The notes beneath the pieces are model-generated. The model worked only from the letters and a program-made list of their open reading frames with translations. It was not told the DNA's origin and made no database searches. Positions 16,914-50,234 of a stretch of 64,000 bases of DNA are shown here, piece after piece. This stretch comes from Bacillota bacterium (GTDB lineage Bacteria; Bacillota; UBA5301; Bu52), in NCBI GenBank assembly GCA_014896355.1, contig JADBKO010000005.1:34286-98285 (forward strand), written 5' to 3'. The position numbers were made by a program, and so were the translations under genes. Each line of letters begins with the position of its first letter. Within the stretch, counting starts at the first letter, position 1.

Positions 16914-17000
16914 CCTGGATGGCGAATCTATCTCGCGTAGCGGAGTCTCAAAGCGGATAGGAGGCAGCAGACAACGAACTCAGCTTCCTTCGGCCCAACG

Positions 17001-24018: not shown

Positions 24019-24021
24019 AGT

Positions 24022-25284: not shown

Positions 25285-25425
25285 CCACCGAGTTAGCGGA
25301 GGGCCCTGAAGCACGGGCGACCCGAAGAAAGGCGTACAAAGGTTTAGGGGCCGGGCACTCGGCTGCCCGCCTTGGGAGCCGGGGGATGCTCCGGCCCCAG
25401 ACACCCCGGTTGGAGGAAGACGGCC

Positions 25426-27642: not shown

Positions 27643-28505
27643 AGCTCCGCAATACCCTGATCGCGTATGGGTTTCTGCTTCCGGCCCTGGTATTGATGGG
27701 GATCTATACGTTTTTCCCCATTGTTTTTGGCACCTATCTCGGCTTTACTGAGTACAACGTCATCACTCCGCCCAGATTTGTGGGCCTGGAGAACTTCCGC
27801 ACCCTTCTTGGCGAAAGCTATTTTTGGTCCGGGCTGTGGAACTCCATCCGCTACATCCTGGTAGTGCCCGTGATTCAGCTGGTATCCATTGCCGTGGCCA
27901 TGCTGGTTAACCGCCAATTACCGGGCATCGGGGGATTTCGGACGGCTTACTACATCCCGGTGGTCAGCAGTTTTGCAGTGGTGGGACTCATGTGGGGATG
28001 GATGTATGACCAGTTCGGTCCGGTGAACTTTGTGCTGAAGACTCTGGGCCTCGTGAAGAATCCAACAAATCTACTGCTTAACCCGGCGCTGGCCTTGTAC
28101 GCGGTCATGTTTGTTACTCTTTGGAAAGGCATTGGGTACTACATGGTTCTGTATCTGGCGGGCCTTCAAAGCATTGACCGGTCGTACGAAGAGGCGGCTC
28201 TGATCGACGGAGCAAACCGCTGGCAGGTGTTCTGGAATGTGACCTTGCCACTGCTGCGCCCCATCATCCTGATCTGCAGCCTGCTTTCTACCATCAGCGC
28301 CATCAAGGTTTTCGAGGAGATCTTCGTGATGACAGGAGGCGGACCGGCAGGCTCTACTTACACCGCCTTGTATTTCATTTATTCTAAGGCCTTCCAGGAC
28401 TTCAAATATGGTGAAGCCGCCGCCGCAGGTTTGGTGGTGGCTGTCGTGAGTTTGTTCTTCAGCATTCTGAACTTCAAGTACACGCGGGGAGGGCAGATAT
28501 CGTGA
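27639..28505 (+). CDS. ABC sugar transporter permease (MalF/UgpA-like)
   Basis: Six TM segments and an EAA-type loop (EAALIDGANRWQVFWNVTLP). Confidence 0.9.
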   Translation: MKLRNTLIAYGFLLPALVLMGIYTFFPIVFGTYLGFTEYNVITPPRFVGLENFRTLLGESYFWSGLWNSIRYILVVPVIQLVSIAVAMLVNRQLPGIGGFRTAYYIPVVSSFAVVGLMWGWMYDQFGPVNFVLKTLGLVKNPTNLLLNPALALYAVMFVTLWKGIGYYMVLYLAGLQSIDRSYEEAALIDGANRWQVFWNVTLPLLRPIILICSLLSTISAIKVFEEIFVMTGGGPAGSTYTALYFIYSKAFQDFKYGEAAAAGLVVAVVSLFFSILNFKYTRGGQIS

Positions 28506-29356
28506 ACGCCAAGGCAATTCGTCGCGCTCGCAAATCCGTACAGACTATCGGCGTATATGCCCTCTTGATCGTTATCGCCGTCATCACGATTTACCCGTTC
28601 TTTTGGACCGTGATCACGAGCTTCAGCGGTTCCGGCGGGATCTTCAAGTTCCCTCCGCCGTTGTGGCCAACGAGTCCAACGCTGGAGAACTATGTCTACG
28701 TAGTGCAAAACGTGCCGTTGGTGCGTTACATTGTCAATAGTGTGATTATTTGCTTCTTCGGGGTCGCTGGCAGTATTTTGGTGGCGACGTTGGGCGGGTA
28801 CCCTTTGGCAAAGATGGAGTTTCCCGGGCGGGATTTCATCTTCGGAGCCATATTGGCTACGCTCATTCTGCCTAACGAGGCGGGTCTGATCGTCAACTAC
28901 ATTACCACCATCAAGCTAGGGCTGTTGAAGTCCGGGCCGGGGCAATATGCGGCCATCATTCTGCCAAGCCTGGCTTCCACCATCGGGATCTTTCTGATGC
29001 GGCAGGCCTACCTGGCCATCCCGAAGGAGCTCCTGGAAGCCGCCCGGGTGGACGGGGCCTCAGAATGGCGGATCTGGTGGCAAATCATGATTCCGCTCAC
29101 AGCTCCCACTGTGGCCGCGTTTGCTATCCTGCAATTCGTGGCCTTTTGGAACTCGTTCCTGTGGCCCATCATTGTCCTGACAGATAAGAGCTACTATCCG
29201 TTGGCCTCCGGCTTGTTGGATCTACAGGGGCAGTTTGCCACCAATACCCGGGCCGTGGCTTCGGGGACCGTCATCGCCATGCTTCCCATCCTGGTCGTCT
29301 TTCTCTTCGGCCAACGCTACTTTATGCGGGGCCTGGAGGGAGCTGTGAAGCAGTAA
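28502..29356 (+). CDS. ABC sugar transporter permease (MalG/UgpE-like)
   Basis: EAA loop EAARVDGASEWRIWWQIMIPL. Confidence 0.9.
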   Translation: MNAKAIRRARKSVQTIGVYALLIVIAVITIYPFFWTVITSFSGSGGIFKFPPPLWPTSPTLENYVYVVQNVPLVRYIVNSVIICFFGVAGSILVATLGGYPLAKMEFPGRDFIFGAILATLILPNEAGLIVNYITTIKLGLLKSGPGQYAAIILPSLASTIGIFLMRQAYLAIPKELLEAARVDGASEWRIWWQIMIPLTAPTVAAFAILQFVAFWNSFLWPIIVLTDKSYYPLASGLLDLQGQFATNTRAVASGTVIAMLPILVVFLFGQRYFMRGLEGAVKQ

Positions 29357-29420: not shown

Positions 29421-29480
29421 GCCGCAGCCTATCGCCAGGCGCAGCCGTTCGTGCCGGGCATAGGCTGCGGCTTTCTTATT
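29421..29480 (+). terminator. Rho-independent terminator closing the first carbohydrate operon
   Basis: GCCGCAGCCTAT...ATAGGCTGCGGC 12-bp stem followed by TTTCTTATT. Confidence 0.6.
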
Positions 29481-29490
29481 GTCAGGAACC

Positions 29491-29700
29491 GTTGCGTTTC
29501 TGTGCGCAACATGCGCAACGAATTCAGTCTACTTTACGGGCCCAGGAACGCGAGCTTAAATGGCGAAGAAGGAATTACTTCGAGACTGAAGAATATATAC
29601 TGCCGAAGAGACCGGTGGGCGAAGAGTGTTGCTCTGTTGCGCAATAGGTGCATTTGCTTACCCGGGCATGCTTGGGTAGTGCAACAGCCGCGCAACGCAT
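29491..29700 (+). promoter_or_regulatory. Cluster of TTGCGCAA-type palindromic repeats (candidate LacI-family operators) upstream of the LacI regulator gene
   Basis: GTTGCG-N8-CGCAAC at 29491-29510, ATGCGCAAC at 29511-29519, the perfect palindrome TTGCGCAA at 29637-29644, and GCAACAGCCGCGCAACG at 29683-29698. Confidence 0.3.
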
Positions 29701-29729
29701 ACGGCTGGTCTAGGGTTGGAGGTCTGAAG

Positions 29730-30815
29730 GTGCCAAAGCCGAGCCTGCGAAGCATCGCACACGCGATGGGTGTATCTCCCTCTACTGTCAGCCGGGCTCT
29801 ACGGAATAGCCCTCGGATCAGTGAATCCCGCAAGCGACAGGTGCGGGAGATGCTGGCCGTCTACGGTTATCCCCTAGACCCTGCGGCAGGGGAACGTACA
29901 GATGAGCGGGAACGCAGCGCTGTTGCGTTTCTGATCGCCAATCCGCAGGGAAACCTGAATTCGGACAGTTTCTTCACGGAGGTTATCCGAGGGGCGGTTC
30001 GTTTCCTAAACGAAGCAGGCCGATCGCTGTTGGTAGATACGTTGGCCGAGGGGGAGGGGGACCTGACCCGTCAGCTGGAGTCTTTGCTTGCTTCACAGCG
30101 GGTATCGGCGCTGGTGGTCGGCGGCATTCCGCTTCCCGACAGGTGCGTGGAGACCCTGGCCAATGCTTCTGTTCCGGCGGTTTTCATCGGGAAGTACACT
30201 CAGAACCCGTTTCGATTCAACGCCGTTCTTCCCGATAACGTAGAGGGAGGCAGGCTGGTGGGCCTGCACTTGACTGCGTGCGGTTACGAAGAATTCTATT
30301 ATTTCGGCGGCGACCTGCACATCCACACGTTTTCGGACCGGCTAAACGGATACCAACAAGGCTTGAAAGAGTCCGGCGCCCGGCTGCCGGCGGAGAATGT
30401 GCTCATTAGCCCCAGGATCGACCAGGCAGCAGGATACCGGCTGGCCAAGATGCTTCTTAGCCGCCTGACACCGGGCGTGCCTGGGCAGAACCCCGCAAGG
30501 CGCGCCATCTTCGCGGCTACCGACTGGATGGCCGCCGGAGTGCTGCGCGCGTTGGCCGAGGAAGGACGGGCAGTGCCGGAGGAATTTGGGGTCGTCGGAT
30601 ACAGCGACCTGGAGCTGGCTTCGCACATTATCCCTGCCTTAACCACCGTTCGGGTGAACATGGATCAGCTGGGTTACCTAGCGGCTCGGACCGCTGTAGA
30701 CCTGGCCAGCCTGACCCTTGCCGGGCCGATCCAGATCGTCCAGCAACCTGTTTTGGCGATCCGGGAGTCCTCCGCACAGTCCCAGGGCACCGGGAACGTC
30801 CAGGCAGGGGCTTGA
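29730..30815 (+). CDS. LacI-family transcriptional regulator
   Basis: N-terminal HTH (SLRSIAHAMGVSPSTVSRALRN) and a periplasmic-binding-like effector domain. GTG 29730 has a GGAGG SD; the track ORF is extended upstream to 29451. Confidence 0.85.
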   Translation: MPKPSLRSIAHAMGVSPSTVSRALRNSPRISESRKRQVREMLAVYGYPLDPAAGERTDERERSAVAFLIANPQGNLNSDSFFTEVIRGAVRFLNEAGRSLLVDTLAEGEGDLTRQLESLLASQRVSALVVGGIPLPDRCVETLANASVPAVFIGKYTQNPFRFNAVLPDNVEGGRLVGLHLTACGYEEFYYFGGDLHIHTFSDRLNGYQQGLKESGARLPAENVLISPRIDQAAGYRLAKMLLSRLTPGVPGQNPARRAIFAATDWMAAGVLRALAEEGRAVPEEFGVVGYSDLELASHIIPALTTVRVNMDQLGYLAARTAVDLASLTLAGPIQIVQQPVLAIRESSAQSQGTGNVQAGA

Positions 30816-30869
30816 AGACCAGTTGGCTGCTGCGGCCGAAGTGCCACGGCGGGAAGGTGAGATGGGCCT

Positions 30870-32543
30870 TTGCATATCGGCTTTGTTCCCTTAGACGACC
30901 GGCCATGTACAAGCCGGTTCGCTCCGGAGATTGCTGGGTTGGTGGGGGAGCGCCTGTTTCTTCCACCTCGGGAACTACTGGGGCATTTCCAAACTCCTGG
31001 AGACCGTGATGGCGTGATGGAGTGGCTGCATGATGTTTCGCCGCAGCTGGATGCATTGATTGTCAGCTGCGACATGCTGGCGTTCGGCGGGCTGGTTGCT
31101 TCACGGACGCCGGCGGTTCCTCTCGAAGAAGCGCTGGAACGGCTCAGGTGGCTCCACGATCTGAAGCGTGCGAACAGGGGGCTGACAATCCTAGGGTGGA
31201 GTGTGATCACACGGTTGTCCATCACTGCCCAGGACCGTCGCTCGGCACGCTACTGGCAGTACCTCCACGAGTACAACCAACTTCCGGGCGCCCGCACCGC
31301 TGGATGCTTGGACTCGGCCCCGGAGAAAGGCTTGGATTCTGTTGAACCGCTCGGCACCAGCGCGGCAAGCGCCCGCCTTCGGCACCTGGAACAGATAATT
31401 CCGGCAACCATTCTTCAGGCCTACCGGCAAGTCCGGCGGCGCAACCATGCAGTGAATCGGCTCGCCGTCGAATTGGCGGCGGACGGCACTTTCGATTACC
31501 TCTGTCTGTGCCAGGAAGACGCGGCGGTCAATGGCCCCCATAAAGCGGAGCAGGCGGCCCTGCTGAAGTTGGCTGAGGAGACGGGGGCGAGGCCGCGGGT
31601 AAACGTTTATCCGGGCGCGGACGAAGCAGGGATGGTTTTGTTGACCCGGGCTTTGCTTGGAGCCGCTGGCCGAACTCCTCAGGCTCTGTTTTTGTGTCTG
31701 CCTACGGCAGGCGCCGGCATAGTGCCGGAATATGAAGACCGCCCCTTGCGGGAAAACCTGCTCGCTCAGGCTGCCGCCGCCGGGATGAGGGGCAGGATCG
31801 TCTGTTCGGACCAGCTTCAGCGGGGCCTGCCGGAAGAAAGCCTGCTTTTCTGGGTCAACTGTCCGGATCCACCCTGCCTGGGCCCTCCCAGCTCATGCGC
31901 TCCACCCGTAGATCTCCAAACGCAGCGGGAGCAGGAATTCGAAACGCAGCTGGATTTGGTCCGAGGTGTGCTGGGGCGAAGCAGGTACGCGCTGCGTGGC
32001 TTCGGACCAGCCTCCGTTGTGGACGTGCGGGTTGCCAACGGGGGCGAGGATGCTTTCGTACGACGGCTCCTGCAAAAGGGGCTCGCGGGCCAGCTGGCGG
32101 CCTACGCCGGCTGGAATACGGCGGGGAATTCCATTGGCACCGCTCTGGCCATGGCCGGAATTGCGTGGCTGGGGGTCCGGGGCCGGCGCATCCCCGGCCG
32201 GCCTTCTGAATGGGATGGAGCCCTCCTGCATCGGCAGTTGCTGTGGCAACGCTTTACAGACGACTGGCTGTACCAGACAGTGGTGCGCCCGCGCCTTATG
32301 CGGTTCGTGGAGGAGCTCCATGACGATCCTTACCACCTGTCCAGTCGGGGCGCCACTCTGGTCGAAGAAAGATTGGCACGAGAATTGATTCCGTTAAGCC
32401 AGCAATGGTACCGTGTGTTTGCCGGAGAGACGTCGGCTGGTGGGAATGAGGCCGTCTCCGGCGTTCTGCCTCAAATCTGTTGTCGCCTGCCTTGGGGCCG
32501 CCTTTTCGAAGTGGAACTCAGCGTGCGCCTGGCTAGCGGTTAG
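30870..32543 (+). CDS. DUF4127-family protein, copy 2
   Basis: HIGFVPLDDRPCTSRF. Collinear similarity with copy 1 throughout (LAFGGL, NHA(L/V)N, YPGADE, LAAYAGWNTAGN, LFEV). TTG start with a GAAGGTGA SD. Confidence 0.7.
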   Translation: MHIGFVPLDDRPCTSRFAPEIAGLVGERLFLPPRELLGHFQTPGDRDGVMEWLHDVSPQLDALIVSCDMLAFGGLVASRTPAVPLEEALERLRWLHDLKRANRGLTILGWSVITRLSITAQDRRSARYWQYLHEYNQLPGARTAGCLDSAPEKGLDSVEPLGTSAASARLRHLEQIIPATILQAYRQVRRRNHAVNRLAVELAADGTFDYLCLCQEDAAVNGPHKAEQAALLKLAEETGARPRVNVYPGADEAGMVLLTRALLGAAGRTPQALFLCLPTAGAGIVPEYEDRPLRENLLAQAAAAGMRGRIVCSDQLQRGLPEESLLFWVNCPDPPCLGPPSSCAPPVDLQTQREQEFETQLDLVRGVLGRSRYALRGFGPASVVDVRVANGGEDAFVRRLLQKGLAGQLAAYAGWNTAGNSIGTALAMAGIAWLGVRGRRIPGRPSEWDGALLHRQLLWQRFTDDWLYQTVVRPRLMRFVEELHDDPYHLSSRGATLVEERLARELIPLSQQWYRVFAGETSAGGNEAVSGVLPQICCRLPWGRLFEVELSVRLASG

Positions 32544-32553
32544 GGGGATAATC

Positions 32554-33255
32554 ATGGGATCCTACGCTACCGTTTTTTCGCAAAAGGCTTTTGTTCTCAT
32601 TGCTTCGTTGCCTGCCAACGATCCAATCATTGCAAAGGAGGCTTTGAACGCGGGTGCGGATGTGCTGAAGGTGCACATCAACCTACACCACCGTGCCAGC
32701 GGCCAGCAGTTCGGCTCTCTCCACGAAGAGCAGAGCCGTCTGGTGGAGATCCTGCGCCTGGCCAGGGCCAAGGGGGTTCCCGTCGGGATCGTGCCTGGCG
32801 CCGAACCTGTTGTAAACCTTGGCCTGCTGACAGAGCTGCGGGACATGGGATTTTCCTTCATATCCGCTTATGCGCAACATCTTGGGCCCGAGGCTCTAAC
32901 CCTGACTGGAATCGACCGCATGATTGCCCCGGATTATACCTATTCCATACCGGAGGTCACGGCGCTGGGAACTTTGGGATTCGAGGTGCTGGAGGCTTCC
33001 GTGATTCCCCCGGACCGGTACGGGGCTCCCTTGAGCCTTCGTGATCTGGCTAGATACCATGCCATTGCTACGGCTGTCCCCATGCCCGTCGTGGTTCCCA
33101 CGCAGCTGCGGATCCAGCCGGAGGAAGTTTCGTTTCTGCGACAGGCCGGGGTCAGAGGCGTAATGATTGGGGCTGTGGTGACGGGCAGGGACGCGGCGGG
33201 GATGGCCCGGGCTACCCAGGCATTCCGCCGTGCCATCGACGGGTCCAGGCTGTGA
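32554..33255 (+). CDS. NanE-like TIM-barrel protein (putative sugar-phosphate epimerase, distant paralog of nanE)
   Basis: VLIASLPANDPIIAKEALNAGADVLKVHINL parallels the NanE stretch LIVSCQALPDEPLH..MAQMAVAAWQGGAAGIRANS. ATG 32554 has a GGGGGA SD, immediately after the DUF4127 stop. Confidence 0.45.
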   Translation: MGSYATVFSQKAFVLIASLPANDPIIAKEALNAGADVLKVHINLHHRASGQQFGSLHEEQSRLVEILRLARAKGVPVGIVPGAEPVVNLGLLTELRDMGFSFISAYAQHLGPEALTLTGIDRMIAPDYTYSIPEVTALGTLGFEVLEASVIPPDRYGAPLSLRDLARYHAIATAVPMPVVVPTQLRIQPEEVSFLRQAGVRGVMIGAVVTGRDAAGMARATQAFRRAIDGSRL

Positions 33256-33267
33256 CGGAGGAAGATC

Positions 33268-34770
33268 ATGGGCCGAGATATAGCTCCAGTTGCGGGTCAA
33301 TCAGATCATCCAGCCCCATCGAGCGAGGCTTTGCATCCGGACGTCCTTGTGGTAGGCGGAGGCCCAGCGGGCCTGGCTGCCGCTGTAGCCGCCGCCCGCC
33401 AGGGATGTTCCACGATGCTGCTGGAGCGTTATGGATTTGTGGGCGGGACTCCGGTGGCGGCTCTGGTGGGTCCCATGATGACTTTTCATGCAGGTAGCCG
33501 CGCTGTGGTGGGCGGCATCGGCCAGGAAATCGTTGACAAGCTGGTACAGATGGAGGCTTCCCCTGGTCACGTGCCGGACATGATCGGCTTTGTCCCCTCC
33601 TTGACGCCCTTTGACCCGGAAGCGTTAAAAGATGTTGCACTAGATCTCGTACTGGGGTCCGGGGTGCAGCTTTGCCTGCATTGTTGTGCTGCCTCGGTGC
33701 AGGTGGACCGCGGCCGGATCGAATCTGTGCGGGCCTTTGGGCGCTGGGGCGAACTGGAGATTCATCCTGCCTTCGTGGTGGACGCCACCGGCGACGCCGA
33801 CATTGCGGCCCGTGGAGGCTTCTCCTTTGAGATCGGACGCCCAGGCGACGGTCTTGTTCAGCCAGCAACTTTGATCCTTCGCGTGGGTGGAGTGGACCTC
33901 GCGGAGCTGAGGCAGTATGTGGCGGATCATCCGGACGACTTCGTGCTGGGTTGTGCACCTGGCGAGATCATGGAATTTCCATGGCTGTCCGTGGCGGGCT
34001 TTTTCTCCATTGTCAAGAAAGCCCGCGAGCGGGGGGAATTCGGTGTTCCCAGGGACAGGGTGCTGGCATTTCAGGGTATCCACCCTGGGGAGATGCTGAT
34101 CAACATGACGCGGGTCCACGTCCGCCCTGGCTCCCTGCAGGAGCTAACCCGCGCGGAAGTGGAGGGCCGGCGGCAGAGCCAGGAGGTCCTGCGTTTTTTG
34201 CGGCGGTACGTGCCCGGATTCCGGCAAGCGTATCTCATGCAGTCCGGCGTTCAAGTGGGGTTCCGCGAGTCGCGGAGAATTGTGGGGCACTACGTACTCA
34301 CCGCCCGGGATGTGGTGCAGGGAAGCCGCCTGCCCGATGCCGTGGCCATGGGAGGGTTCCCCATCGACATCCATTCGCCGGCGGGTAAGGGCCTGGGGGC
34401 CTACCAGCCGGCGGCACCGCTGGGCTATGAGATTCCCCTGCGGGCCCTGATCCCGGCAGGGGCGAAGAACTTACTGGTGGCGGGGCGATGCATCTCCAGC
34501 ACCCATGAGGCCCATGCCTCAGTGCGGGCGACGCCGACCTGCTTCGCCACAGGCCAGGCGGCAGGGACCGCAGCGGCTGTGGCCGCGAAGGAAGGGATCC
34601 TGGACCTCTCAAGCGTTGCTGACCTGCAGGCAGTACAGGTTGGCACAGCGGCGGCAACGGGAGGAGCGAAGCTGATCCGTCTTGTTCAGGAAGCCTTGCT
34701 TTCCGCCGGCGCCATCTTTAACAGCAGTCTAGTGAGAAAGGAGGACGCGCATATGCGTGCGTCTCGCTAG
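33268..34770 (+). CDS. FAD-dependent oxidoreductase (pfam12831-like), copy 2
   Basis: DVLVVGGGPAGLAAAVAAARQGCSTMLLERYGFVGG. Collinear with copy 1 (VVDATGDADIA, GFRESRRIVG, C-terminal GRCIS..H..A..R..P.C...GQAAGTAAA). Confidence 0.8.
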   Translation: MGRDIAPVAGQSDHPAPSSEALHPDVLVVGGGPAGLAAAVAAARQGCSTMLLERYGFVGGTPVAALVGPMMTFHAGSRAVVGGIGQEIVDKLVQMEASPGHVPDMIGFVPSLTPFDPEALKDVALDLVLGSGVQLCLHCCAASVQVDRGRIESVRAFGRWGELEIHPAFVVDATGDADIAARGGFSFEIGRPGDGLVQPATLILRVGGVDLAELRQYVADHPDDFVLGCAPGEIMEFPWLSVAGFFSIVKKARERGEFGVPRDRVLAFQGIHPGEMLINMTRVHVRPGSLQELTRAEVEGRRQSQEVLRFLRRYVPGFRQAYLMQSGVQVGFRESRRIVGHYVLTARDVVQGSRLPDAVAMGGFPIDIHSPAGKGLGAYQPAAPLGYEIPLRALIPAGAKNLLVAGRCISSTHEAHASVRATPTCFATGQAAGTAAAVAAKEGILDLSSVADLQAVQVGTAAATGGAKLIRLVQEALLSAGAIFNSSLVRKEDAHMRASR

Positions 34771-34855
34771 AGCTCTGGTAACCCTATTGCGGTCCGCGTT
34801 CAGCGCTACGTAGAGATCAACCGGGAAAACTCATTTGATGAGGGAGGCTTTATCC

Positions 34856-36178
34856 ATGTTTCGAAGGATGTTCAATCTAGAACGTGCACAGTCCCGGCTG
34901 GCTACGCCAGGCGGGGGCCTGCGGATGGCCTTGATAATACTCGCCGTAGCCGCCTGTCTTTCTGCCGTTACGCCTTCTGCCTGGGCGGCTTCCCGGACCA
35001 CGGTGACTTTTTGGATGGCTGGCAATGACCAGAAATTCATGGATACCGTCAACACCCAGCTTCTCCCTGCCTTTGAGAAGAAGTATCCCAAAATCGATCT
35101 CCAGATCACGTTCGTGCCGTGGGAAACTCTCTCTGTGAAGCTGGCAACGGCATTCGCCGGAGGCATGGCGCCGGACGTCTTTATGCACGGGGCAGCCGCC
35201 ACTGCTGGCTTTGCCGCAACGGGCCGCGTGGAGCCTTTGGATTCCTTGATCGCCAAGATGCCGGACGCCAGGGACTTCGGCAGCACCCTGGAGCAAGGTA
35301 ACTACTACGGAAAGCATTACATGATCCCCGTCTTCGGCGCCGGCCGGCTTCTGATGTATCGAGCTGACGAATTCAAGGAAGCGGGCCTCAATCCCGATGA
35401 GCCTCCGGCCACATGGGAGGAGTTCCGGAATGCAGCGATAAAACTCGCGATCCGCCGGGGAAATCAGATTGTTCGCGAAGGTATTGATCTCCCCACATCC
35501 GGCATCGATGCCCAGCAGATCTTTGCCTGCTTCCTGTGGCAGGCAGGAGGCAGCTTCTTCAACCGTGATTACACGCGGGTGACATTCAACGATGCCCACG
35601 GCGTGGAGGCCCTACAGTTTCTGGCGAATCTGATCCAAAAGGATAAGGTCGCAGATACTAGCATTAATCTGGGGCAGGGTAACGTGCCGCCTATCGCCAC
35701 CAACCAGGTTGCCATGCTTTTCGCCGTGCCGGGAGATGTGGCCCAAGTGAAAACCTACGCTCCCGGAATTTATAAGGAGATCCGGGTCGCACCGCCGCTA
35801 AAGAACAAAGAACAATGGACTTTCTACAGCTTCTCAGGGATGTTCATGTCCAAGACCAGCAAACATAAAGAAGACGCCTGGAAAGTCATGGAGTTCTTCT
35901 CCAGCCCCGAAGCTTTGGAGAAGATCAACGCATCCATGGGCACCCTTCCGCCGCGCCGTTCGCTGGCCAAGGCTCCGGCCTTCGCATCCGATCCGAACAT
36001 CCGGGCCTTTGTGGAAAGCATGCAATACGCAAGGGGAAACCCAAACATCGCCCAGTGGGTGCAGATCCGAGACATCCTGTCCCGGTACCTGGAGCAGGCG
36101 TTGTATGGCCGAATGACGCCGAAAGCTGCACTGGACCAGGCGGCCAAAGAGGCAGACGCCCTGCTGAGCAACCGCTAA
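34856..36178 (+). CDS. ABC transporter substrate-binding protein (CUT1 family)
   Basis: Signal peptide and SBP_bac_1-like sequence. ATG 34856 has a GAGGGAGG SD; the track ORF starts at 34835. Confidence 0.85.
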   Translation: MFRRMFNLERAQSRLATPGGGLRMALIILAVAACLSAVTPSAWAASRTTVTFWMAGNDQKFMDTVNTQLLPAFEKKYPKIDLQITFVPWETLSVKLATAFAGGMAPDVFMHGAAATAGFAATGRVEPLDSLIAKMPDARDFGSTLEQGNYYGKHYMIPVFGAGRLLMYRADEFKEAGLNPDEPPATWEEFRNAAIKLAIRRGNQIVREGIDLPTSGIDAQQIFACFLWQAGGSFFNRDYTRVTFNDAHGVEALQFLANLIQKDKVADTSINLGQGNVPPIATNQVAMLFAVPGDVAQVKTYAPGIYKEIRVAPPLKNKEQWTFYSFSGMFMSKTSKHKEDAWKVMEFFSSPEALEKINASMGTLPPRRSLAKAPAFASDPNIRAFVESMQYARGNPNIAQWVQIRDILSRYLEQALYGRMTPKAALDQAAKEADALLSNR

Positions 36179-36332
36179 GGGCTGCGCCTCAGGTAAAAGC
36201 CAGTAGTGAGAGTGGGCAAAATGCGGGAGAGGCGGGGCCAGGGGCGTGCGGGCCCCTACCTCTCCTACACGCCGCTCCGGTGCCTCCGAAGTCCCCTGTG
36301 GTTCCAGATCGACGCAGCTGGAGGGTTATTGT

Positions 36333-37229
36333 ATGTCATCATTATCTGCTTATTGGCGCAACAGGACACGCCGTGAACAGATGCTCACAGGGTACGCTTT
36401 TGTGGCACCCATTGTCCTATACACCCTAGTCACCGGGTTCATCCCCGTTGTAAGCTCGCTGTATCTGAGCTTCACAAACTACAACATGATGACGCCCGCG
36501 CGTTGGATTGGCCTCCAGAACTACGTTCAGGTCCTCTTCCACGACTCGCTCTTTTGGAGAGCCATGCTCAATACTGCCCAGTACTCTCTGGAGGTCCTTC
36601 CCCTCAATGTTCTTTTTTCCTTGTGCTTGGCCTTGTTGGTGAACCAAAAGCTGCGGGGAATTACAATCTTCCGTACGCTTTACTACCTGCCCGTGGTCAC
36701 CTCCAGCATTGCTGTGAGTATGATCTGGCTCTGGTTATACAACAAGAACTCAGGGCTGATCAACTTGTTTCTGGGGCTTTTCGGGTTGGGGCCTGTCGAC
36801 TGGCTGGGGACGCCGGGCCTGGCGCTGCATTCGCTCGTCTTGATGCGGGTCTGGAAAGGGATCGGCTGGAACATGGTGATCTATCTGGCGGGCCTCCAGG
36901 GGATTCCGAAATACCTGTACGAAGCCGCGGACATCGACGGGGCCTCCGGCTGGAAGAAATTCTCCCAAGTTACCTGGCCTTCGTTGCGTCCGGTGACCTA
37001 CTATATCGTGGTGATGGGGCTTATCAGCACCTTCCAAACCTTTGCCGAAATCTACGCCATGACCAACGGGGGGCCGCTAGGATCCACCACAACCGTGGCT
37101 TATCTGATCTATCAGCGTGCCTTCGGAGCCTTTGACATGGGCAATGCATCGGCTGTGTCTTTCATTCTGTTCGTGGTGATTTTCGGGCTGTCGCTGGTGA
37201 ACGTGAAGTACTTCCAGCCGCAAGACTAA
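36333..37229 (+). CDS. ABC sugar transporter permease (MalF-like)
   Basis: EAA loop EAADIDGASGWKKFSQVTWP. ATG 36333 has a GGAGGG SD. Confidence 0.85.
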   Translation: MSSLSAYWRNRTRREQMLTGYAFVAPIVLYTLVTGFIPVVSSLYLSFTNYNMMTPARWIGLQNYVQVLFHDSLFWRAMLNTAQYSLEVLPLNVLFSLCLALLVNQKLRGITIFRTLYYLPVVTSSIAVSMIWLWLYNKNSGLINLFLGLFGLGPVDWLGTPGLALHSLVLMRVWKGIGWNMVIYLAGLQGIPKYLYEAADIDGASGWKKFSQVTWPSLRPVTYYIVVMGLISTFQTFAEIYAMTNGGPLGSTTTVAYLIYQRAFGAFDMGNASAVSFILFVVIFGLSLVNVKYFQPQD

Positions 37230-38156
37230 TGGTTACTGGGGGCGAAAATGTGGCACAGACAGTGGTCTACGGACGGCTCGCCGGGCGCGAATTCCGGTTT
37301 GCCGTTCGCAAGCTGGGCACTTACCTGGTTTTGACATGTGTGGCGGTGGTGATGGCGGCGCCGTTCCTCTGGATGCTGCTCAGTTCGTTCAAACCAGACG
37401 CCGAACTCTTTGCCTATCCGCCGGTATGGCTGCCCAGGCACGTGACACTTCAACACTATATCGACGCCTTCTCGCATTCCTTGTTCGCTCGCTATTTCTT
37501 CAATAGCCTGGTGGTGACGGGATTGGCGACTGTGGCAAACCTGTTCTTTTGTGCCCTGGCCGGGTATGCCTTCGCCCGCCTGGACTTTCCCGGGCGAGAT
37601 GTGATCTTTTACGCTCTACTGGGGACCATGATGATCCCGGGTTATGTTACGCTGATCCCCCTGTTCATCATCGTCAAGAGCATTCCTTTCGCCGGGGGGA
37701 ATAACTGGTTAGGGCAGGGCGGGACGGGTTGGGTGAACACCTTGCCGGGCCTCGCGTTTCCTTACCTGATGAGTGTTTTCGGGGTTTTTCTTGTCCGCCA
37801 GTTCTTTCGGACGATACCTACGGATCTTAAACGACGCAGCACGTATTGATGGTGCCTCGGAGTTTACGATTTTCTGGCGTATCTACGTACCGCTGAGCCG
37901 CCCGGCGCTGATGACTCTGGGTATTTTCAGCTTCACCTCCGTGTGGGATGATTTTCTTTGGCCACTGGTCATCACGAATACAGAAGCCATGCGCACAGTC
38001 CAACTGGGGCTTCAGACGTTCCAGAGCCAGTTCTTTACAAATTGGGGAGGGCTGATGGCTGCCACATTGGTGGTGACGGTGCCAACTTTGTTGATTTTCA
38101 TATTCGGCCAGAAGTACTTCATTGAGGGAATTGCTACCGGCGGCATCAAGGGCTAA
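37229..38156 (+). pseudogene. ABC sugar transporter permease (MalG-like) broken by a +1 frameshift near 37829-37831
   Basis: Track ORFs 37229-37849 and 37773-38156 are two halves of one permease. The EAA loop reads ...FFRTIPTDLK|RRSTY* in frame 1 and continues ...LNDAARIDGASEF in the other frame. An extra A in the run cttAAAcgac explains it. Confidence 0.7.
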
Positions 38157-38204
38157 CGAAGAAGTACCAGCCTTCGGCCGTACTGTGCCCCGGAGGTCCC
38201 GGGG

Positions 38205-40043
38205 TTACTTGTCGCTGACCTCCTGCCGTCCAGAAGGAGTGAGCAGCGTCGGTACAAGCTGCACGAACGCTTGCACCAGCTCCGGGTCGAACTGCGTGCC
38301 GGCGTTGGCCAGCAGCTCTGCTTGCGCTTCAGCGAACGTGAGGCCGGGGCGGTACGGCCTGCTGGTGGTCATTGCGTCGAAAGAGTCGGCGATGGCCAGA
38401 ATCCGGGCCACGACCGGTATTTGCCGGCCTTTGAGCCCAGCGGGATAACCCCGGCCGTCAAAACGCTCGTGGTGGTGTCGGATGGCTGGCACCAAAGCTT
38501 GTAGCTCCGCCACATGACCTACGATACTGACACCCCGGTCTGGGTGGGTGCGCACGATCTCCCACTCTTCAGCCGAAAGCCGCCCTGGCTTGCCCAAAAC
38601 ATGGTCCGGGACTGCCAGCTTGCCGATATCATGCAGCAGCCCGGCGGCAAAGACCTGGCGCACGAGCTCCGGTTTCCATCCCAGGGCCTGTGCCAGGCGG
38701 CGGGCGTAACGCGCCACACGCTGAGAGTGGCCGCGGGTGTAAGGGTCGCGAGCATCGATGGCCGCCGCCAGGGCAGCCACGGTCCGGGTGTGCAGACGCC
38801 ATAGATTGTTGCTTAGCAGCGAGGCGCCCAGGGAGGCGCCGCTTAAAATCGCCAGGGACCGCAGGAACCGTTGCTGATTCTCGGAAAACGGCCGCCCGTC
38901 CCGGCGGATGGCTTGAAGCACGCCTAGCCGGCGGGGGCCGGAGGACATGGATATGCTGAGGGCCGCGAAAGAGGGGTCAAGGATTGGTTCGCCCGATTCC
39001 AGCGCCCGCTGAGCCTGAGCCAAGAGCGCATCGCGGGCGGGTGCTTCCGGGAATGAGCCGGGCCGCGCCTCGTCCGGCGTCTTGGATCGTGGGGCGCCCA
39101 TCCCACGCCATGCCTTCAGGGCCACCGTGGTATCCGGCCCATGAAGTGGCCCGGCCGGTCCGCCCGGCCCCTCCACGACAGGCAGTCCCGTTTGCCGGGC
39201 CACCGTTTCGTCCAAATAGATTGCAGCCTCGTCGGCGCCGGCCAAGCCAGCCACCGCATCCACGGTGAATTGTAGAATTTGGGAAGGAGTTAGACCTGTG
39301 ACCGCCTCCGCCAGGCTCTCCAACGCCGCTGCCGTGGCTTCGGATTCCTGGCGCTTCATGCGGTCCCGAAAGTGCGTCCAAAGCCACGCTGCTTCGCGTC
39401 CCACCACAAGAAGGAGCTCCAGCAGAGAGTTTGCCGGGGGTACCGGGTCTTCCGGCCCCTGCAGCACCAGGAACAGACGGGCGGGCGGGGACCCGCCAGG
39501 GCCGTGAAAAGGGACGCTGTACAGCCTGGCCGGCGGTCCGGCTGGCAGCAGCTCCCGCAGCTCTCCCCCAAGGGGTTGCCGGGCCAGCCGCGTACCCGGA
39601 CCAAAATGAGACGGGTTGGCCAGGCTTTGCACCACCGCTGGCGGCAGGTTCCAGACGCTCACCGCCACACCGGCAGGGATTTCCGCCGCGTGGCCTTCTG
39701 CCGCGTAGTCTTCTGCCGCGTGGCCGGTTAAAAAAGGCCCCCCAGCCCGGTCCATTTCATCGGACCACGCTGCTTGGTCCTGGCCGTACAAGGCGAGCAG
39801 CGCGCCGCAGGAACTGGATCTGGGGATGAGTCCGCTTTCCTGTGCAAAGCGACAGAACTGCTCGAGGAGCCATGCGACGGCCCGCTCCCCCATAGACGAG
39901 CGTTGGATTGCAGTGGCGGTCCACTCCTCCAGACGGGGAAGACTCCGGGTCAATCCCACCGTCTCAACCTGAGCTCCAAAGGGGGCTGGAGTTTGCCCGC
40001 CGCCCATGGAACGCTCGTCTCCGCTCGTGGAAGCTCGCAGCAC
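38205..40043 (-). CDS. GAF-domain HD-GYP phosphodiesterase-like signalling protein
   Basis: C-terminal HD-GYP domain (LLHDIGKLAVP, HHERFDGRGYPAGL). The start is uncertain. Confidence 0.8.
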   Translation of the reverse strand: MLRASTSGDERSMGGGQTPAPFGAQVETVGLTRSLPRLEEWTATAIQRSSMGERAVAWLLEQFCRFAQESGLIPRSSSCGALLALYGQDQAAWSDEMDRAGGPFLTGHAAEDYAAEGHAAEIPAGVAVSVWNLPPAVVQSLANPSHFGPGTRLARQPLGGELRELLPAGPPARLYSVPFHGPGGSPPARLFLVLQGPEDPVPPANSLLELLLVVGREAAWLWTHFRDRMKRQESEATAAALESLAEAVTGLTPSQILQFTVDAVAGLAGADEAAIYLDETVARQTGLPVVEGPGGPAGPLHGPDTTVALKAWRGMGAPRSKTPDEARPGSFPEAPARDALLAQAQRALESGEPILDPSFAALSISMSSGPRRLGVLQAIRRDGRPFSENQQRFLRSLAILSGASLGASLLSNNLWRLHTRTVAALAAAIDARDPYTRGHSQRVARYARRLAQALGWKPELVRQVFAAGLLHDIGKLAVPDHVLGKPGRLSAEEWEIVRTHPDRGVSIVGHVAELQALVPAIRHHHERFDGRGYPAGLKGRQIPVVARILAIADSFDAMTTSRPYRPGLTFAEAQAELLANAGTQFDPELVQAFVQLVPTLLTPSGRQEVSDK

Positions 40044-40107
40044 GTTTGTCGAGGCCCCGATCTGCGGGTGGACATTCGCGGTGGAAGGCCTCTTCCTCCC
40101 TTACCGA

Positions 40108-40470
40108 TCAAAGGTGTGGCGAGCCCAGGCTTTGAGCGCCATCCGTTTCTTCGTCCGCGGTTTCGGCCTCCTCCTCGTCGGCGGCAGGCCCGATGGGCTG
40201 CACCACCGGCGGGGAATAACGATAGACCGCACTGCGGCGCGGCGCTGCCTTAGGCAGCCCCTGGCTTTCGCCCTGCTTGGTCAAGATGCCCCGCTCCACC
40301 AGCCTCTGAACCGCCAACGCCACAAGCCCCGGGTCACGGCCCACCCGCGACGCAATGCCAGGCAGAGTGTCGGCCAAGCCCACGTTCCGCTGGAACAGCG
40401 CCATGACCTCCACCTGCACGCGGGTAAGGAGGGCTTCATCCTCCGTGGCCAGGCTCGGTGTCCCCTCCAA
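40108..40470 (-). CDS. Small winged-helix protein (120 aa), hypothetical regulator
   Basis: High-GC3 ORF with an AAGGAG SD. Helix-turn-helix-like TLPGIASRVGRDPGLVALAVQRLVERGIL and an acidic tail. It lies immediately upstream of and co-oriented with the HD-GYP gene. Confidence 0.5.
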   Translation of the reverse strand: MEGTPSLATEDEALLTRVQVEVMALFQRNVGLADTLPGIASRVGRDPGLVALAVQRLVERGILTKQGESQGLPKAAPRRSAVYRYSPPVVQPIGPAADEEEAETADEETDGAQSLGSPHL

Positions 40471-40684
40471 CTCCTGCTCGCTCCTTTCTACGTCGTGGCG
40501 GGATACGCGGCGCTTGCCCTCGCGCTTGCCCTACACGTGCTCTGTAGAAATGATTCCAGCTGTCGATAGCAGAATCCTTCCACGGCAGGAAATCCTTGGA
40601 AATCCCAGAAAATTATCTAGCAGGACGCCGCGGACGGGGGAAGGGACGTCCGGGTGAGGCGAAATCTGGAGGTGCAAGCCCAAA

Positions 40685-42418
40685 GTGTCAGCCAGTGAAC
40701 GTGTGACCACCGGCGTGCCTCAACTGGATGAGGTCCTGGAAGGAGGCATTCCCCGGAACTCTCTCGTTTTGGTGTATGGCGGTCCCGGCACGGGCAAAAC
40801 CACCCTGGGCCTGCAATTCCTGGTGGAGGGCACCCGCCGCGGTGAGCCGGGGTTATTGGTGACCTTCGAGCAAATGCCGGAGCAGCTCTACCGGGATTTC
40901 GCACCCTTCGGATGGGATCTTCCGGGCCTGGTGCGGCAAAAACGCCTACAGATCCTTTGCACTTCCCCGGGCACGCTTTGGGAGGACCTCCTGAGCCCCG
41001 GCGGGATGGTGGAGGAAGCGTTCCGCCAACTGCGCGTGCAGCGCCTGGTCATCGACCCCATCACCTTGTTGGCCTGTGCCGGGGCTGTGGATGCGGGCTG
41101 GGCCCCGGCCGCCGGGGCGGCCCCAGGGTCCCCAGGGCTGGCAGCGGAGGCAGCGGCTGAAATCGCGGCCACGGGGCCTGCGCCAGCGGCGGAGGCCACG
41201 CCGTTGGCAGGAAGGGGCGCAGCCGCGGGGCTGGGCGCACCGTCTCCGGCCGGCGCGCACCCCTGGGCCAGCTCGCGCACGCGTATGTACGCAGTTTTCA
41301 ATGCCCTGCGCCGCCTGGGGGCCACTGCGCTTCTGTTGGCGGAGGCCCCGATGGCCGGCTGGGCCGGCGATGCGGGGCTCTCGGGCAGGAGTGGGCCGGA
41401 CGGGGGAGATCCCGGCGTGGCCGGTTTCCTGGCAGACGGCATCCTGGAACTGAGTTTCCCCTATGTGGATGTAGGCAGGAGCAGCCGTAGCCAGGAGACG
41501 GGCCTGGATGCGCAGGCGGCGGGCGGCGGCGCCATGGCCAGCCTGGCTGCCAACAGACGCAGGTTTGTGGAGGTGTTGAAGATGCGGGGCAGCGGCTTCG
41601 TGCCAGGCCGGCATCTAATGCGGTTTGATATCACTGGCTTGGCGTTGGTGCGGCCCCTGACCCGCATGCAGTCCGGGCGACGGGCGGCGCTGGAGAGCCC
41701 CGCCGCGGCGATCCCAACGGGCCTGCCGCTGTTGGACGACGCTCTGGGCGGGGGATTCCCGCGCGGGGCCACAGTTTTGTTGGACGTGAACGGCAAGGCC
41801 GACTATTATGATCTGGTGGGCCTGCTGATCCATCGCTGGTATGCCGCCGGGGCCAACCTCTACCTGCAGCCGTCCAGCCTGGTGGGCCCCATCGAGATTG
41901 TGGAAAATGTGCGGCGCCAGGGCAGCGATTTGCTGGAAGGCGCAGCCCAGGGGCGGATCCTGCTGGCGGAATACTTCAGGCGCCCGCTGCTGCCGGAACT
42001 GGAGAAATGCCTGATCCGCGGCTGGGAGATGAGCGACCGGGAGGCTTTGTCGTGGGTGCGGCAGTTCTTCGCCGAGTACATGGAGCCCGATGCACAGCGG
42101 GGACGGCCCTGGCTGATCTATCGGGATCTCAACACCCTGGCCGTGGCGCGGGGCAGCAAATACCTGGTGCAGGATTTCGCCGCTGCCACTTCCTGGGTTC
42201 GCGCCTGCCGCGGCGGTTATTTGGCCTTGGTGAACATGGAGGAGATCAGTCCTCATCTGGGGTCGTTTTTGGAGCGTACGGCCTCCGTGGTGGTGCGCAC
42301 GTGGCGGACCCAGCGTTATCAGTTTCTCCAGGTGGTCAAAGCCTTGGACGGACATGTAACGGATGCTCTGGTGGTGGAGCACCAGCCCGACCCGCCATAT
42401 ATCCGGCTCCTGGACTAA
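40685..42418 (+). CDS. KaiC-like RecA-superfamily ATPase with an intact N-terminal KaiC domain and a degenerate second domain
   Basis: Domain 1 has GVPQLDEVLEGGIPRNSLVLVYGGPGTGKTTLGLQF and Walker B LVIDPI. Domain 2 (LPLLDDALGGGFPRGATVLLDVNGKADYY) has lost the P-loop. A long Ala/Gly/Pro-rich linker lies between them. GTG start with a GGAGGTG SD. Confidence 0.8.
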   Translation: MSASERVTTGVPQLDEVLEGGIPRNSLVLVYGGPGTGKTTLGLQFLVEGTRRGEPGLLVTFEQMPEQLYRDFAPFGWDLPGLVRQKRLQILCTSPGTLWEDLLSPGGMVEEAFRQLRVQRLVIDPITLLACAGAVDAGWAPAAGAAPGSPGLAAEAAAEIAATGPAPAAEATPLAGRGAAAGLGAPSPAGAHPWASSRTRMYAVFNALRRLGATALLLAEAPMAGWAGDAGLSGRSGPDGGDPGVAGFLADGILELSFPYVDVGRSSRSQETGLDAQAAGGGAMASLAANRRRFVEVLKMRGSGFVPGRHLMRFDITGLALVRPLTRMQSGRRAALESPAAAIPTGLPLLDDALGGGFPRGATVLLDVNGKADYYDLVGLLIHRWYAAGANLYLQPSSLVGPIEIVENVRRQGSDLLEGAAQGRILLAEYFRRPLLPELEKCLIRGWEMSDREALSWVRQFFAEYMEPDAQRGRPWLIYRDLNTLAVARGSKYLVQDFAAATSWVRACRGGYLALVNMEEISPHLGSFLERTASVVVRTWRTQRYQFLQVVKALDGHVTDALVVEHQPDPPYIRLLD

Positions 42419-43611: not shown

Positions 43612-45339
43612 GTGTCGAAGACCAAGCCGTGGCAGGATGGAGTCATTGGGATGGGATTGCAGCAAATGGAACAAAGCAGGATCATGCGGGCGGAGGCCGG
43701 CAGGACCGGGCAAGACGCCGGCGCTGCGGCCAATGCTGCGGCCAATGAGGGTCCGGGCGCTGCCGCAGGGGCTGCGCCTCCGTGCACGGTGGTGATTTTC
43801 GGGGCTACCGGAGATTTGGCCCAGCGCAAGTTGTTTCCAGCCTTGTACGGTCTCCATCGGGACGGCCTGCTGGATCCGCGCACGCAGGTCGTGGGCGTAG
43901 GGCGCCGGGAGAAAACCCCTGAGCAGTTCCGCTGTGAATTGCAGGAGTACGTGTGGCGGTTTTCGCGCCTGGCTGCGCCGGCGCGCCAGGCTCAGAGTCC
44001 AGGCGTGGGCGTCCTGCCGCAATGGGAGGATTTCGCCCGCCGCTTCCACTATTTCCGGCTGGAGATGCACGACGCTGAAGGGTATGGCCGGCTGCAGTCC
44101 TTTCTGGAAGAGCTGGAGCAGGCTGCAGGGGTCGGCCGCCGGCGCATCTTTTATTTGGCCGTGATGCCGGATCTCTTCGGCATCGTGACGGGCAACCTGC
44201 GCCAGGCAGGGCTGCTGGAAGCGCCAACACCCGCCCCGGACCCGGCGGCGGCACACGGGGCCGGAAAGGCGAACGGCACCGCAGGTTTGTGGCCGCGGTT
44301 GGTCATCGAGAAACCTTTCGGCTACGACCTGGAATCCGCCGCTCGCCTGAACCGGGAGATCCGCCAGGCTTTCCCGGAGGACGCAATCTATCGCATCGAC
44401 CACTACCTGGGCAAGGAGATGACGCAGAACATCAGCGTCATTCGCTTTGCCAATACCATCTTCGAGCCGGTCTGGAACCGCAACTACATCGACCACATTC
44501 AGATCATGTCCACCGAGACGGTGGGGGTGGAAAACCGGGGTGAGTACTATGATCGCGCCGGCGCACTGCGCGATATGGTGCAGAACCACATGCTCCAGCT
44601 GGTGGCCCTGGTGGCCATGGAGCCGCCCAGCAGCCTGGAATCGGAGGCCGTGCGCGACGAGAAGGTGAAAATCCTCCGTTCCCTGGTTCGTTGGCAGACC
44701 CCACGGGAGGTGGCCCGCAATGCCGTCCGCGGACAGTACGGGCCGGGGCGTGTGGCCGGGCAGGATGTCCCTGGATACCGCTCCGAGCCGGAGGTGCGCC
44801 CCGATTCCCGCACAGAGACTTTCGCCGCCATGCGGCTTTTCGTGGACAACTTCCGTTGGGCGGATGTGCCCTTCTATCTGCGCACCGGCAAACGGCTGGG
44901 GTACAAAGCCACGGAGATCGCCATCCAGTTCAAGCAGCTGCCGCGCATTCTGTATTTCCACGACTACGGCGGCCTGCAGCCCAACCGCCTGGTGATCCGC
45001 ATCCAGCCCGTCGAAGGTGTGTACTTTCAGATCAACGCCAAACAGACCGGCACCCAGACGGAGATGATGCCCGTGGCGATGGATTTCTGCCGCAATTGCG
45101 GCACCACGGCCAACTCTCCGGAGGCGTACGAGCGCCTGCTTTTCGATGTGATGCGGGGCGATGCCACGCTGTTCACCCGCTGGGATGAGGTCTCCCTGGC
45201 CTGGGAATTCGTGGACCCCATTGCCCGGGCTTGGGAGCAGACTACACCGGACTTCCCCAACTACCCGGCGGGATCCTGGGGGCCGGAGGCGGCTCGCAAT
45301 CTGCTGCACCAGGACGGGCGCTCGTGGTGGCCAGAATGA
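43612..45339 (+). CDS. zwf: Glucose-6-phosphate 1-dehydrogenase
   Basis: IFGATGDLAQRKL, RIDHYLGKE, EKPFG and a C-terminal G6PD domain. The real start is probably an internal ATG (43642-43684); the N-terminal ~40 aa are low-complexity. Confidence 0.85.
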   Translation: MSKTKPWQDGVIGMGLQQMEQSRIMRAEAGRTGQDAGAAANAAANEGPGAAAGAAPPCTVVIFGATGDLAQRKLFPALYGLHRDGLLDPRTQVVGVGRREKTPEQFRCELQEYVWRFSRLAAPARQAQSPGVGVLPQWEDFARRFHYFRLEMHDAEGYGRLQSFLEELEQAAGVGRRRIFYLAVMPDLFGIVTGNLRQAGLLEAPTPAPDPAAAHGAGKANGTAGLWPRLVIEKPFGYDLESAARLNREIRQAFPEDAIYRIDHYLGKEMTQNISVIRFANTIFEPVWNRNYIDHIQIMSTETVGVENRGEYYDRAGALRDMVQNHMLQLVALVAMEPPSSLESEAVRDEKVKILRSLVRWQTPREVARNAVRGQYGPGRVAGQDVPGYRSEPEVRPDSRTETFAAMRLFVDNFRWADVPFYLRTGKRLGYKATEIAIQFKQLPRILYFHDYGGLQPNRLVIRIQPVEGVYFQINAKQTGTQTEMMPVAMDFCRNCGTTANSPEAYERLLFDVMRGDATLFTRWDEVSLAWEFVDPIARAWEQTTPDFPNYPAGSWGPEAARNLLHQDGRSWWPE

Positions 45340-45408
45340 CAGCATGCTCCGCTCCGGGCTGGCCGGCCTAGCCGGGGTAGAGCGCGAGACAGGAAGGAAG
45401 GAAGCCTC

Positions 45409-46077
45409 ATGCTCCAGGTGTTCGATATCTCCCTACTCATCTATCCCGGGATGGCAGTATGGAAGGACCGGCAGGAGAAACGTCCCTCTGTGCGGATCAC
45501 GCGGGATTTCGCCGCAGACGGCATTCGGGAGTCCCGGCTGGAGCTGGACTCCCATACGGGCACTCACGTGGATGCGCCCCTGCACATGATGCCTGGCGGA
45601 TCCAGCATTGACCAGCTTTCCGGGCCGCAGCTGGTGGGTCCCGGCCGGGTGCTGGACCTGACGGCTGTGCAAGACCACATCGGCCGGACGGACCTGGAGC
45701 CCTATGCTCGCGTGATTCAGCCGGGTGAATTCGTACTCCTGAAGACCGCCAACTCTCCCGGTCCCCCCTTTGACCCGCACTTTGTCTTCCTGGCGGAGGA
45801 TGGGGCGGCGTTCCTGGCCGGCCTGGGCGTGCGGGGCGTGGGCATTGACGCCCTGGGCATCGAGCGGGATCAGCCCGGACACCCCACCCATCGCATCCTT
45901 TTCCAGCACGGCGTCACCATCCTGGAGGGGCTGCGCCTGCGCCATGTGCCGGCCGGGTCTTACCTGTTGGTGGCTGCGCCCTTGTTGGTGGCTGGAGGAG
46001 ACGCGGCTCCTGCCCGGGTGTTCCTCCTGGGCGAAGGGGCAAAGGAAGGGAGGATTCCCCAGGAAATAGTCGAATAA
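45409..46077 (+). CDS. Cyclase-family protein (kynurenine formamidase-like, pfam04199)
   Basis: HTGTHVDAPLH metal-binding motif. Confidence 0.8.
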   Translation: MLQVFDISLLIYPGMAVWKDRQEKRPSVRITRDFAADGIRESRLELDSHTGTHVDAPLHMMPGGSSIDQLSGPQLVGPGRVLDLTAVQDHIGRTDLEPYARVIQPGEFVLLKTANSPGPPFDPHFVFLAEDGAAFLAGLGVRGVGIDALGIERDQPGHPTHRILFQHGVTILEGLRLRHVPAGSYLLVAAPLLVAGGDAAPARVFLLGEGAKEGRIPQEIVE

Positions 46078-46157
46078 GGGAACTAAAAGACGGATGCCGA
46101 CAGATTACGTCCGGTAGGGTCCAGAGCGAGGGGGTTATCCGGAAAGGCGGGCTAGCC

Positions 46158-47339: not shown

Positions 47340-47431
47340 TGCGGCCGGTCGTGACTTATTCTGAGACGGCGGCACGGGGAACAGGAGATATAGCACAGGG
47401 CTTGCACGGGACGGCCAATTGCGGAGGTGAG

Positions 47432-48475: not shown

Positions 48476-48548
48476 GGGCGGCCTCCTCTCTGGTCGCTGC
48501 TGAAGGCCATTATACCGCAAAGGCCGGATGGGTGCCGGCGCACTTCTT

Positions 48549-48630
48549 GCCGGAAGGATTCCGGCAGAAGATGGCGAAACTACAGACAGTCCAGAGGACG
48601 CCCGCCGGGCGCAGGGCGTCTTTTTTCGAG
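48549..48630 (+). promoter_or_regulatory. Structured leader upstream of treT: a GCCGGAA/TTCCGGC hairpin followed by a terminator-like GACGCCC..GGGCGUC-U6 hairpin
   Basis: gccggaaggattccggc (48549-48565); gacgcccgccgggcgcagggcgtctttttt (48598-48630). No plus-strand gene lies upstream. Confidence 0.3.
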
Positions 48631-48687
48631 GCGGGAATACAACCGGTTGCAAAACATCCGGGAGCGACATGGAGGGAGGACCGCGCC

Positions 48688-49950: not shown

Positions 49951-50008
49951 GGGCGGCCGGGTGGGTAGCGCGGCCTCAGTCCCTTCAGTCCTTGGCGTCG
50001 CCGGGGTC

Positions 50009-50234
50009 TCAGTCCTTGGTGTCCCCGCCGTCGTGTTCCAGGTGCTCCAAAACCTCGGCGTATTTGTTCCAGTCGGGGGTGGAGCGGTTGCCTTCCCCGA
50101 AGATGCCGCGGGAAACGATACGGTCGCCAGGTTCCAGGCGGGCCACCACCTGGCGCTGTTCCAGCACGTTGACCACCCGGCGCACGGATTCTTCGTCCAG
50201 GCCGCTGGAATGCGAGATTTCGTGGATGGTCACT
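50009..50234 (-). CDS. Small winged-helix protein (~75 aa), hypothetical
   Basis: GTG start with a GGAG SD. High GC3. HTH-like IHEISHSSGLDEESVRRVVNVLEQRQVVARLEPGDRIV. Confidence 0.4.

Follow-up and report, generated by a model that had tools for sequence, protein, structure and literature searches.

A conserved sugar-uptake operon in the window, the whole 64,000-nucleotide stretch of DNA analysed here, ends in a gene with an ordinary +1-base frameshift, which is probably a genuine, very recent loss-of-function allele of the population that was sampled. The gene is predicted from its sequence to encode the second (MalG-type) transmembrane subunit of a CUT1 sugar importer, with a BPD_transp_1 domain, and as sequenced it is a pseudogene of the MalG-type family and not a working member. 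The lesion, its position relative to the EAA motif, the intact orthologues and the presence of a single lesion are directly observed, as is a locus tag without a protein in the public record. The features discussed below are collected in Table 1.

Table 1. Features of the window and independent contigs that cover parts of it (positions are those of the window).
Feature	Position	Strand	Accession or source	Remarks
SAM riboswitch RF00162	2569-2683	-		86 bits
Locus 1	15764-29356			adjoins locus 2
Locus 2	29451-38156			
LacI-family regulator	within 29451-34770	+		intact; first of the upstream locus 2 genes
DUF4127 protein	30870-32543	+		intact
233-aa protein	32554-33255	+	MBE3574250 / IMW99_02135	intact; no Pfam match
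PF12831 FAD-dependent oxidoreductase	33268-34770	+	MBE3574251	intact
Solute-binding protein	35015-36178	+	MBE3574252	387 aa (NCBI annotation); intact; SBP_bac_1
MalF-type permease	36333-37229	+	MBE3574253	298 aa; intact; BPD_transp_1; TAA stop overlaps ATG of broken gene
MalG-type (CUT1 family) ABC permease	37229-38156	+		one extra base; from repair, Pfam, SugB/MalG alignment and locus-tag arithmetic
5' fragment, frame 0	37229-37849	+		206 aa; TM1-TM4, then six out-of-frame residues KRRSTY and TGA
Insertion site TTAAA	37827-37831	+		relatives read CTT/CTC/CTG AAC GAY
3' part, +1 frame	37830-38156	+		N201-G308 and stop; EAA loop, TM5, TM6
EAA coupling motif	37833-37895	+		DAARIDGASEFTIFWRIYVPL; residues 202-222 of repaired protein; starts one codon past the break
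GAF-HD-GYP protein	38205-39953	-	MBE3574254	downstream of the broken gene
Next hypothetical protein			MBE3574255 / IMW99_02165	
KaiC-like ATPase	40685-42418	+		domain interrupted by Ala/Gly-rich insert
765-aa ORF	52418-54715	+		as called on independent contig L084
SelA (selenocysteine synthase)	57874-59346	-		
Contig L001	29503-37249		SRR24392716	99.95% identity, 0 gaps
Contig L082	34949-37570		ERR3971599	98.6% identity, 0 gaps
Further contigs	39995-41448, 44412-55169, 59287-62086		SRR24392716	

Frame 0 of the broken gene, read from the ATG at 37229, gives ...RQFFRTIPTDLKRRSTY* and terminates at the TGA codon at 37847-37849; another excerpt upstream of this codon is ...VRQFFRTIPTDLKRRSTY. The +1 frame is open from 37773 onward, where it reads ...LNDAARIDGASEF... 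and, in a second excerpt, ...LNDAARIDGASEFTIFWRIYVPL... up to the stop codon at 38154-38156. The break falls at CTT-AAA-C, the AAA run occupying 37829-37831. Removal of one A from this run, which the preliminary description had noted to restore a full-length permease, gives an uninterrupted 308-aa ORF. Removal of one T from the adjacent TT (37827-37828) yields the identical 308-aa protein with the codons CTA AAC, so more than one base can be taken as the extra one. An insertion converting AA to AAA at 37829-37831 is the most parsimonious reading, with TT 37827-37828 as the equivalent alternative. The intact site would read GGATCTTAACGACGCAGC (AA) and the frameshifted site reads GGATCTTAAACGACGCAGC (AAA). 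The AAA at the break is nothing special, being one of 274 A3 runs in the window; the non-random aspect of the lesion is the splitting of a conserved domain and not the run itself. In Pfam, the repaired protein aligns with positions 4-178 of the 184 in the BPD_transp_1 profile (E = 1.9e-18). Of the two pieces taken singly, the 3' one is limited to positions 84-178 and the 5' one has no Pfam match. As the domain is complete only in the repaired protein, the two pieces represent one gene split in two and not two genes.

The identity of the repaired protein agrees with the earlier assignment as a MalG-type permease. It satisfies the whole BPD_transp_1 profile (PF00528) of MalG-type subunits and aligns end to end with the structurally solved subunits SugB (E = 1.6e-32) and MalG (E = 1.1e-20). 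Among NCBIfam models it matches GlcU, UgpE and MalG, all far under the equivalog cut-offs, and since no such cut-off is reached the substrate is not assignable. Hydropathy places four segments 5' of the break (~28-52, 90-116, 125-158 and 171-193) and TM6 3' of it. The EAA-x3-G-x9-I-x-LP coupling motif of the cytoplasmic loop between TM4 and TM5 is present and aligns with the SugB motif; within it the repaired protein holds the invariant residues A203, A204, D207, G208, P221 and L222. The preliminary description had put the break at the start of the EAA loop, and the lesion indeed lies one codon 5' of DAARIDGASEFTIFWRIYVPL. The reading frame itself is not continuous, as frame 0 ends at 37849 and the EAA motif, TM5 and TM6 are all in the +1 frame.

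Comparison with the E. coli MalFGK2 (PDB 2r6g) and mycobacterial LpqY-SugABC (PDB 7cad/8ja7) importers reveals both similarities and differences. The repaired protein shares with them the EAA motif and six hydrophobic segments, and the operon likewise holds a family-1 solute-binding protein and a MalF-type partner, as is characteristic of CUT1 operons. In contrast to MalG and SugB, the reading frame here is broken 5' of the EAA motif, and the subfamily has a further conserved loop, FAGGNNWLGQGGTGW, with no counterpart in SugB or MalG. The locus also differs from both systems in having no ATPase gene. In MalFGK2, the EAA loop docks into the ATPase subunit.

Seventeen intact homologues, mostly from Limnochordia-like Bacillota MAGs, were aligned with the repaired protein (50-69% identity over the full alignment). 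The alignment is ungapped across the junction, as with homologue P0001 (IPTELNDAARIDGASEF), and all 65 invariant columns are kept in the window sequence, many of them 3' of the break. At the DNA level, the relatives read CTT/CTC/CTG AAC GAY at the site, versus CTT AAA CGA C in the window. The ungapped alignment and the retention of all invariant residues indicate that the lesion is single and recent, and the sequence comparison points to a lineage-specific one-base insertion with no second lesion. Signs of secondary decay, such as more stops or indels, loss of invariant residues or relaxed dN/dS, were not found, and there is no further lesion. Between the window and the strain at 98.6% identity there are three synonymous and three non-synonymous changes in the 5' third of the gene, compared with 21 synonymous and 6 non-synonymous changes in the two upstream genes, numbers too few for significance. 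The earlier suggestion of ongoing decay does not hold, as the other genes of locus 2 are intact and the broken gene has a single lesion and all of its invariant residues.

Independent copies of the site were sought in several collections. Homology searches with the repaired protein, and separately with its C-terminal 194 aa, returned nothing above 78% identity. The best match in a scan of GTDB representatives was 70%, so the source species is absent from the representatives. Two scans of JGI metagenome DNA with either AA or AAA permitted at the site gave 0 matches. Neither fragment (206 aa or 127 aa) was found by exact-protein look-up, nor was the repaired 308-aa protein or any of eight variants with alternative starts; these absences say little, because partial proteins cut at contig edges are missing from the protein collection (the 114-aa partial from L082 is itself absent).

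If the extra base is real, the effect on the protein can be predicted from the position of the lesion. Insertion would have converted the ancestral CTT AAC GAC to CTT AAA CGA C, one codon 5' of the EAA motif, after which translation would continue through six out-of-frame codons to the TGA. The truncated product would keep TM1-TM4 and would lack the EAA coupling helix required for ATPase docking, TM5 and TM6. Without these elements, the heterodimeric importer would presumably be unable to form or to couple to ATP hydrolysis. We infer that the lesion is in the organism's DNA and not in the consensus only, and that the transporter is hence null. The position of the gene at the end of the operon means that its loss carries no polar cost, such that the allele would be easily tolerated.

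The gene also appears to have been noticed in the public record. The locus tags of the source MAG from IMW99_02135 to IMW99_02165 span six steps for five proteins, with a gap between MBE3574253 and MBE3574254, and this arithmetic indicates a protein-less gene in the record at the broken permease. PGAP records a pseudogene as a locus tag without a protein. Most likely, the broken permease is the protein-less tag IMW99_02155, and the lesion was most likely already flagged as a pseudogene by the depositor's annotation. Like other frameshifted pseudogenes that NCBI PGAP calls in bacterial genomes and MAGs, it has a one-base indel within a short mononucleotide tract, orthologues that are intact and a tag without a protein. 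Set against typical members of that class nothing about it is distinctive; it has one lesion only and no further decay, and is therefore indistinguishable from a consensus error. Accession and locus-tag arithmetic finds no protein-less tags in 40.1-50.2 kb and 56.4-60.7 kb, and one more somewhere in 50.2-56.4 kb. This second tag may be the 765-aa ORF, which has a lipoprotein-type signal (…LLLAGC), a partial Peripla_BP_4 match and long Gly/Ala-rich low-complexity inserts, and which has the same length in the independent assembly.

The quality of the consensus was assessed using independent assemblies. The Logan contigs of SRR24392716, L001 included, overlap the window over 22,759 nt and differ from it there by 10 substitutions and 0 indels; each of the 1,322 homopolymer runs of at least 3 bases in this 22.8 kb is equally long in the window and the independent assembly. 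These results indicate that the contig is not indel-prone and speak against a noisy long-read consensus. The absence of indels in 22.8 kb limits the indel error rate to at most ~1e-4 per base, a ceiling that still exceeds the density at which real frameshifts are expected. A survey of ~50 ORFs that combined a codon-usage gene call with Pfam coverage revealed no further split gene, the GC3 frame plot being too noisy for detecting frameshifts. The few differences from SRR24392716 are clustered, with three synonymous changes in 16 nt of the MalF-type gene (36350-36365) and three changes in 32 nt of the Gly/Ala-rich ORF (53788-53819); this clustering suggests small recombination tracts or microdiversity, not scattered mutation.

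The lesion itself falls outside this coverage. Contigs L001 and L082 both end short of 37830, L001 only 20 nt inside the broken gene, and no contig with complete genes across 37249-39995 was found in any sample searched. This interval is bordered in SRR24392716, whose strain is 99.95% identical, by contigs of 7.7 and 10.7 kb, and the gap could reflect strain variation or a drop in coverage. Comparison with related strains, as had been recommended, was thus informative in one respect, as the orthologues of relatives are intact with CTN AAC GAY at the site; it failed in the other, as the near-identical contigs end at 37249 and 37570. With no independent assembly at 37830, a genuine mutation and a consensus error were properly posed as the alternatives.

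An assembly or sequencing error in the consensus, with CTT AAC GAC and an intact, functional permease in the organism and an extra base confined to the deposited contig, is the less probable of these two alternatives and retains a substantial chance of being correct. The lesion is single, invariant residues and gene-like composition persist 3' of the break, and the other genes of the operon are intact and conserved, all as an error would leave them. Indeed, the total absence of secondary decay, which counts against a genuine allele, is equally expected from a consensus error. The products of a frameshifted copy (206, 199, 195, 127, 121 and 81 aa) are absent for SRR24392716, as expected if an intact gene had been cut by a contig edge, a result equally expected without any assembly of the region. 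Against an error are the lack of indels across 22,759 nt with 1,322 homopolymer runs, the lack of any other split gene, and the fact that a 3-base run is not error-prone in short-read data. Consequently, the homopolymer miscall envisaged in the preliminary description is weakened as the favoured mode by the 1,322 equal runs in 22.8 kb, while an error as such keeps the standing given above.

Explanations in which the frameshift has a function are far less probable. Programmed or leaky +1 ribosomal frameshifting at CUU-A-AAC would require the tRNA-Leu in the P site to move from CUU to UUA, giving the full-length permease. The yeast Ty1 +1 site is CUU-AGG-C, with the same slip of a P-site tRNA-Leu from CUU to UUA, and the bacterial prfB site is CUU-UGA-C. 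The CUU P-site codon and the +1 direction here are as in prfB and Ty1, the CUU/UUA pair is that of Ty1, and the repaired reading is perfectly conserved. Unlike at those sites, the A site has neither a stop nor a rare codon, AAA being frequent (8.7 per 1000 and 35% of Lys codons), no upstream Shine-Dalgarno-like stimulator was found, and the site is not conserved in orthologues, all relatives having a single frame. Downstream RNA folding is no better than that of shuffles (z = 0.24). Lacking a conserved site, a slow A-site codon and a stimulator, programmed frameshifting was rejected as a candidate and is very improbable. It is just as doubtful that a real frameshift is partly bypassed by a Ty1-like +1 tRNA-Leu slip at CUU-A-AAC with low-level production of full-length permease; if true, this bypass would be the first case of recoding in an ABC importer subunit. 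A phase-variable switch by slipped-strand mispairing in the A run, or a functional split into two half-permeases, is likewise highly unlikely. Either would accord with an indel in a mononucleotide run and with a 3' frame open from the GTG at 37773. Known phase-variation switches have homopolymer runs of ~7 or more, and the tract within this ORF is only 3 bases, one of the 274 A3 runs, so the phase variation raised in the preliminary description is abandoned. A functional split is opposed by the lack of a ribosome-binding site 5' of GTG 37773 or TTG 37791, by the wrong frame of the ATG overlapping the stop (37849), and by the position of the break, which parts TM4 from the EAA coupling helix. 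No sign of regulation, of recoding or of a locus in progressive decay emerged, and a genuine, very recent loss-of-function allele is retained as the probable reading.

Several features elsewhere in the window were also recorded. The SAM riboswitch is upstream of two genes in the usual S-box methionine arrangement, one for an alpha/beta-hydrolase that is probably a homoserine O-acetyltransferase and one for a Cys/Met PLP enzyme. The GAF-HD-GYP gene adjoins the KaiC-like ATPase gene, and the two are divergently transcribed around a gene for a 120-aa hypothetical protein. No tRNA genes were detected in the 64-kb window, despite the presence of a SelA gene.

The broken permease belongs to the second of two adjoining loci that each combine a DUF4127 protein, a PF12831 FAD-dependent oxidoreductase and a CUT1 ABC transporter. 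Locus 1 additionally contains RpiR, NanE, a ROK kinase, a GHL10/DUF4985 protein and a GH20-like protein, and locus 2 additionally contains LacI and the 233-aa protein. The gene order of locus 2 is LacI-DUF4127-p233-FAD oxidoreductase-SBP-MalF-MalG, with the broken gene last. In related MAGs, loci L002, L003 and L005-L007 contain this operon intact and in synteny, and synteny of locus 2 is seen in several Limnochordia-like MAGs. Proteins of the two loci share 25-42% identity (33% for MalG). Based on these sequence comparisons, loci 1 and 2 appear to be old paralogues, presumably with different substrates. A recent-paralogue reading of locus 2 was rejected on the low identity to locus 1 and the synteny in relatives, and the same observations, with the intact operons of related MAGs, contradict the earlier suggestion that locus 2 could be a decaying paralogue.

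A real lesion would mean that the strain has only just been deprived of uptake through one of two distantly related sugar loci, a routine case of loss-of-function variation at the strain level. In the case of an error, any metabolic reconstruction of this uncultured Limnochordia-like Bacillota lineage ought to treat the gene as intact. In either case, the frameshift matters little beyond bookkeeping, and the surrounding conserved and uncharacterised operon type, with its DUF4127 protein, PF12831 flavoprotein, 233-aa protein and CUT1 transporter, is of greater interest. A search for DUF4127 found no paper in the literature collection used, and the DUF4127/PF12831/CUT1 pathway consequently looks uncharacterised; possibly, it functions in the scavenging of amino sugars or glycans.
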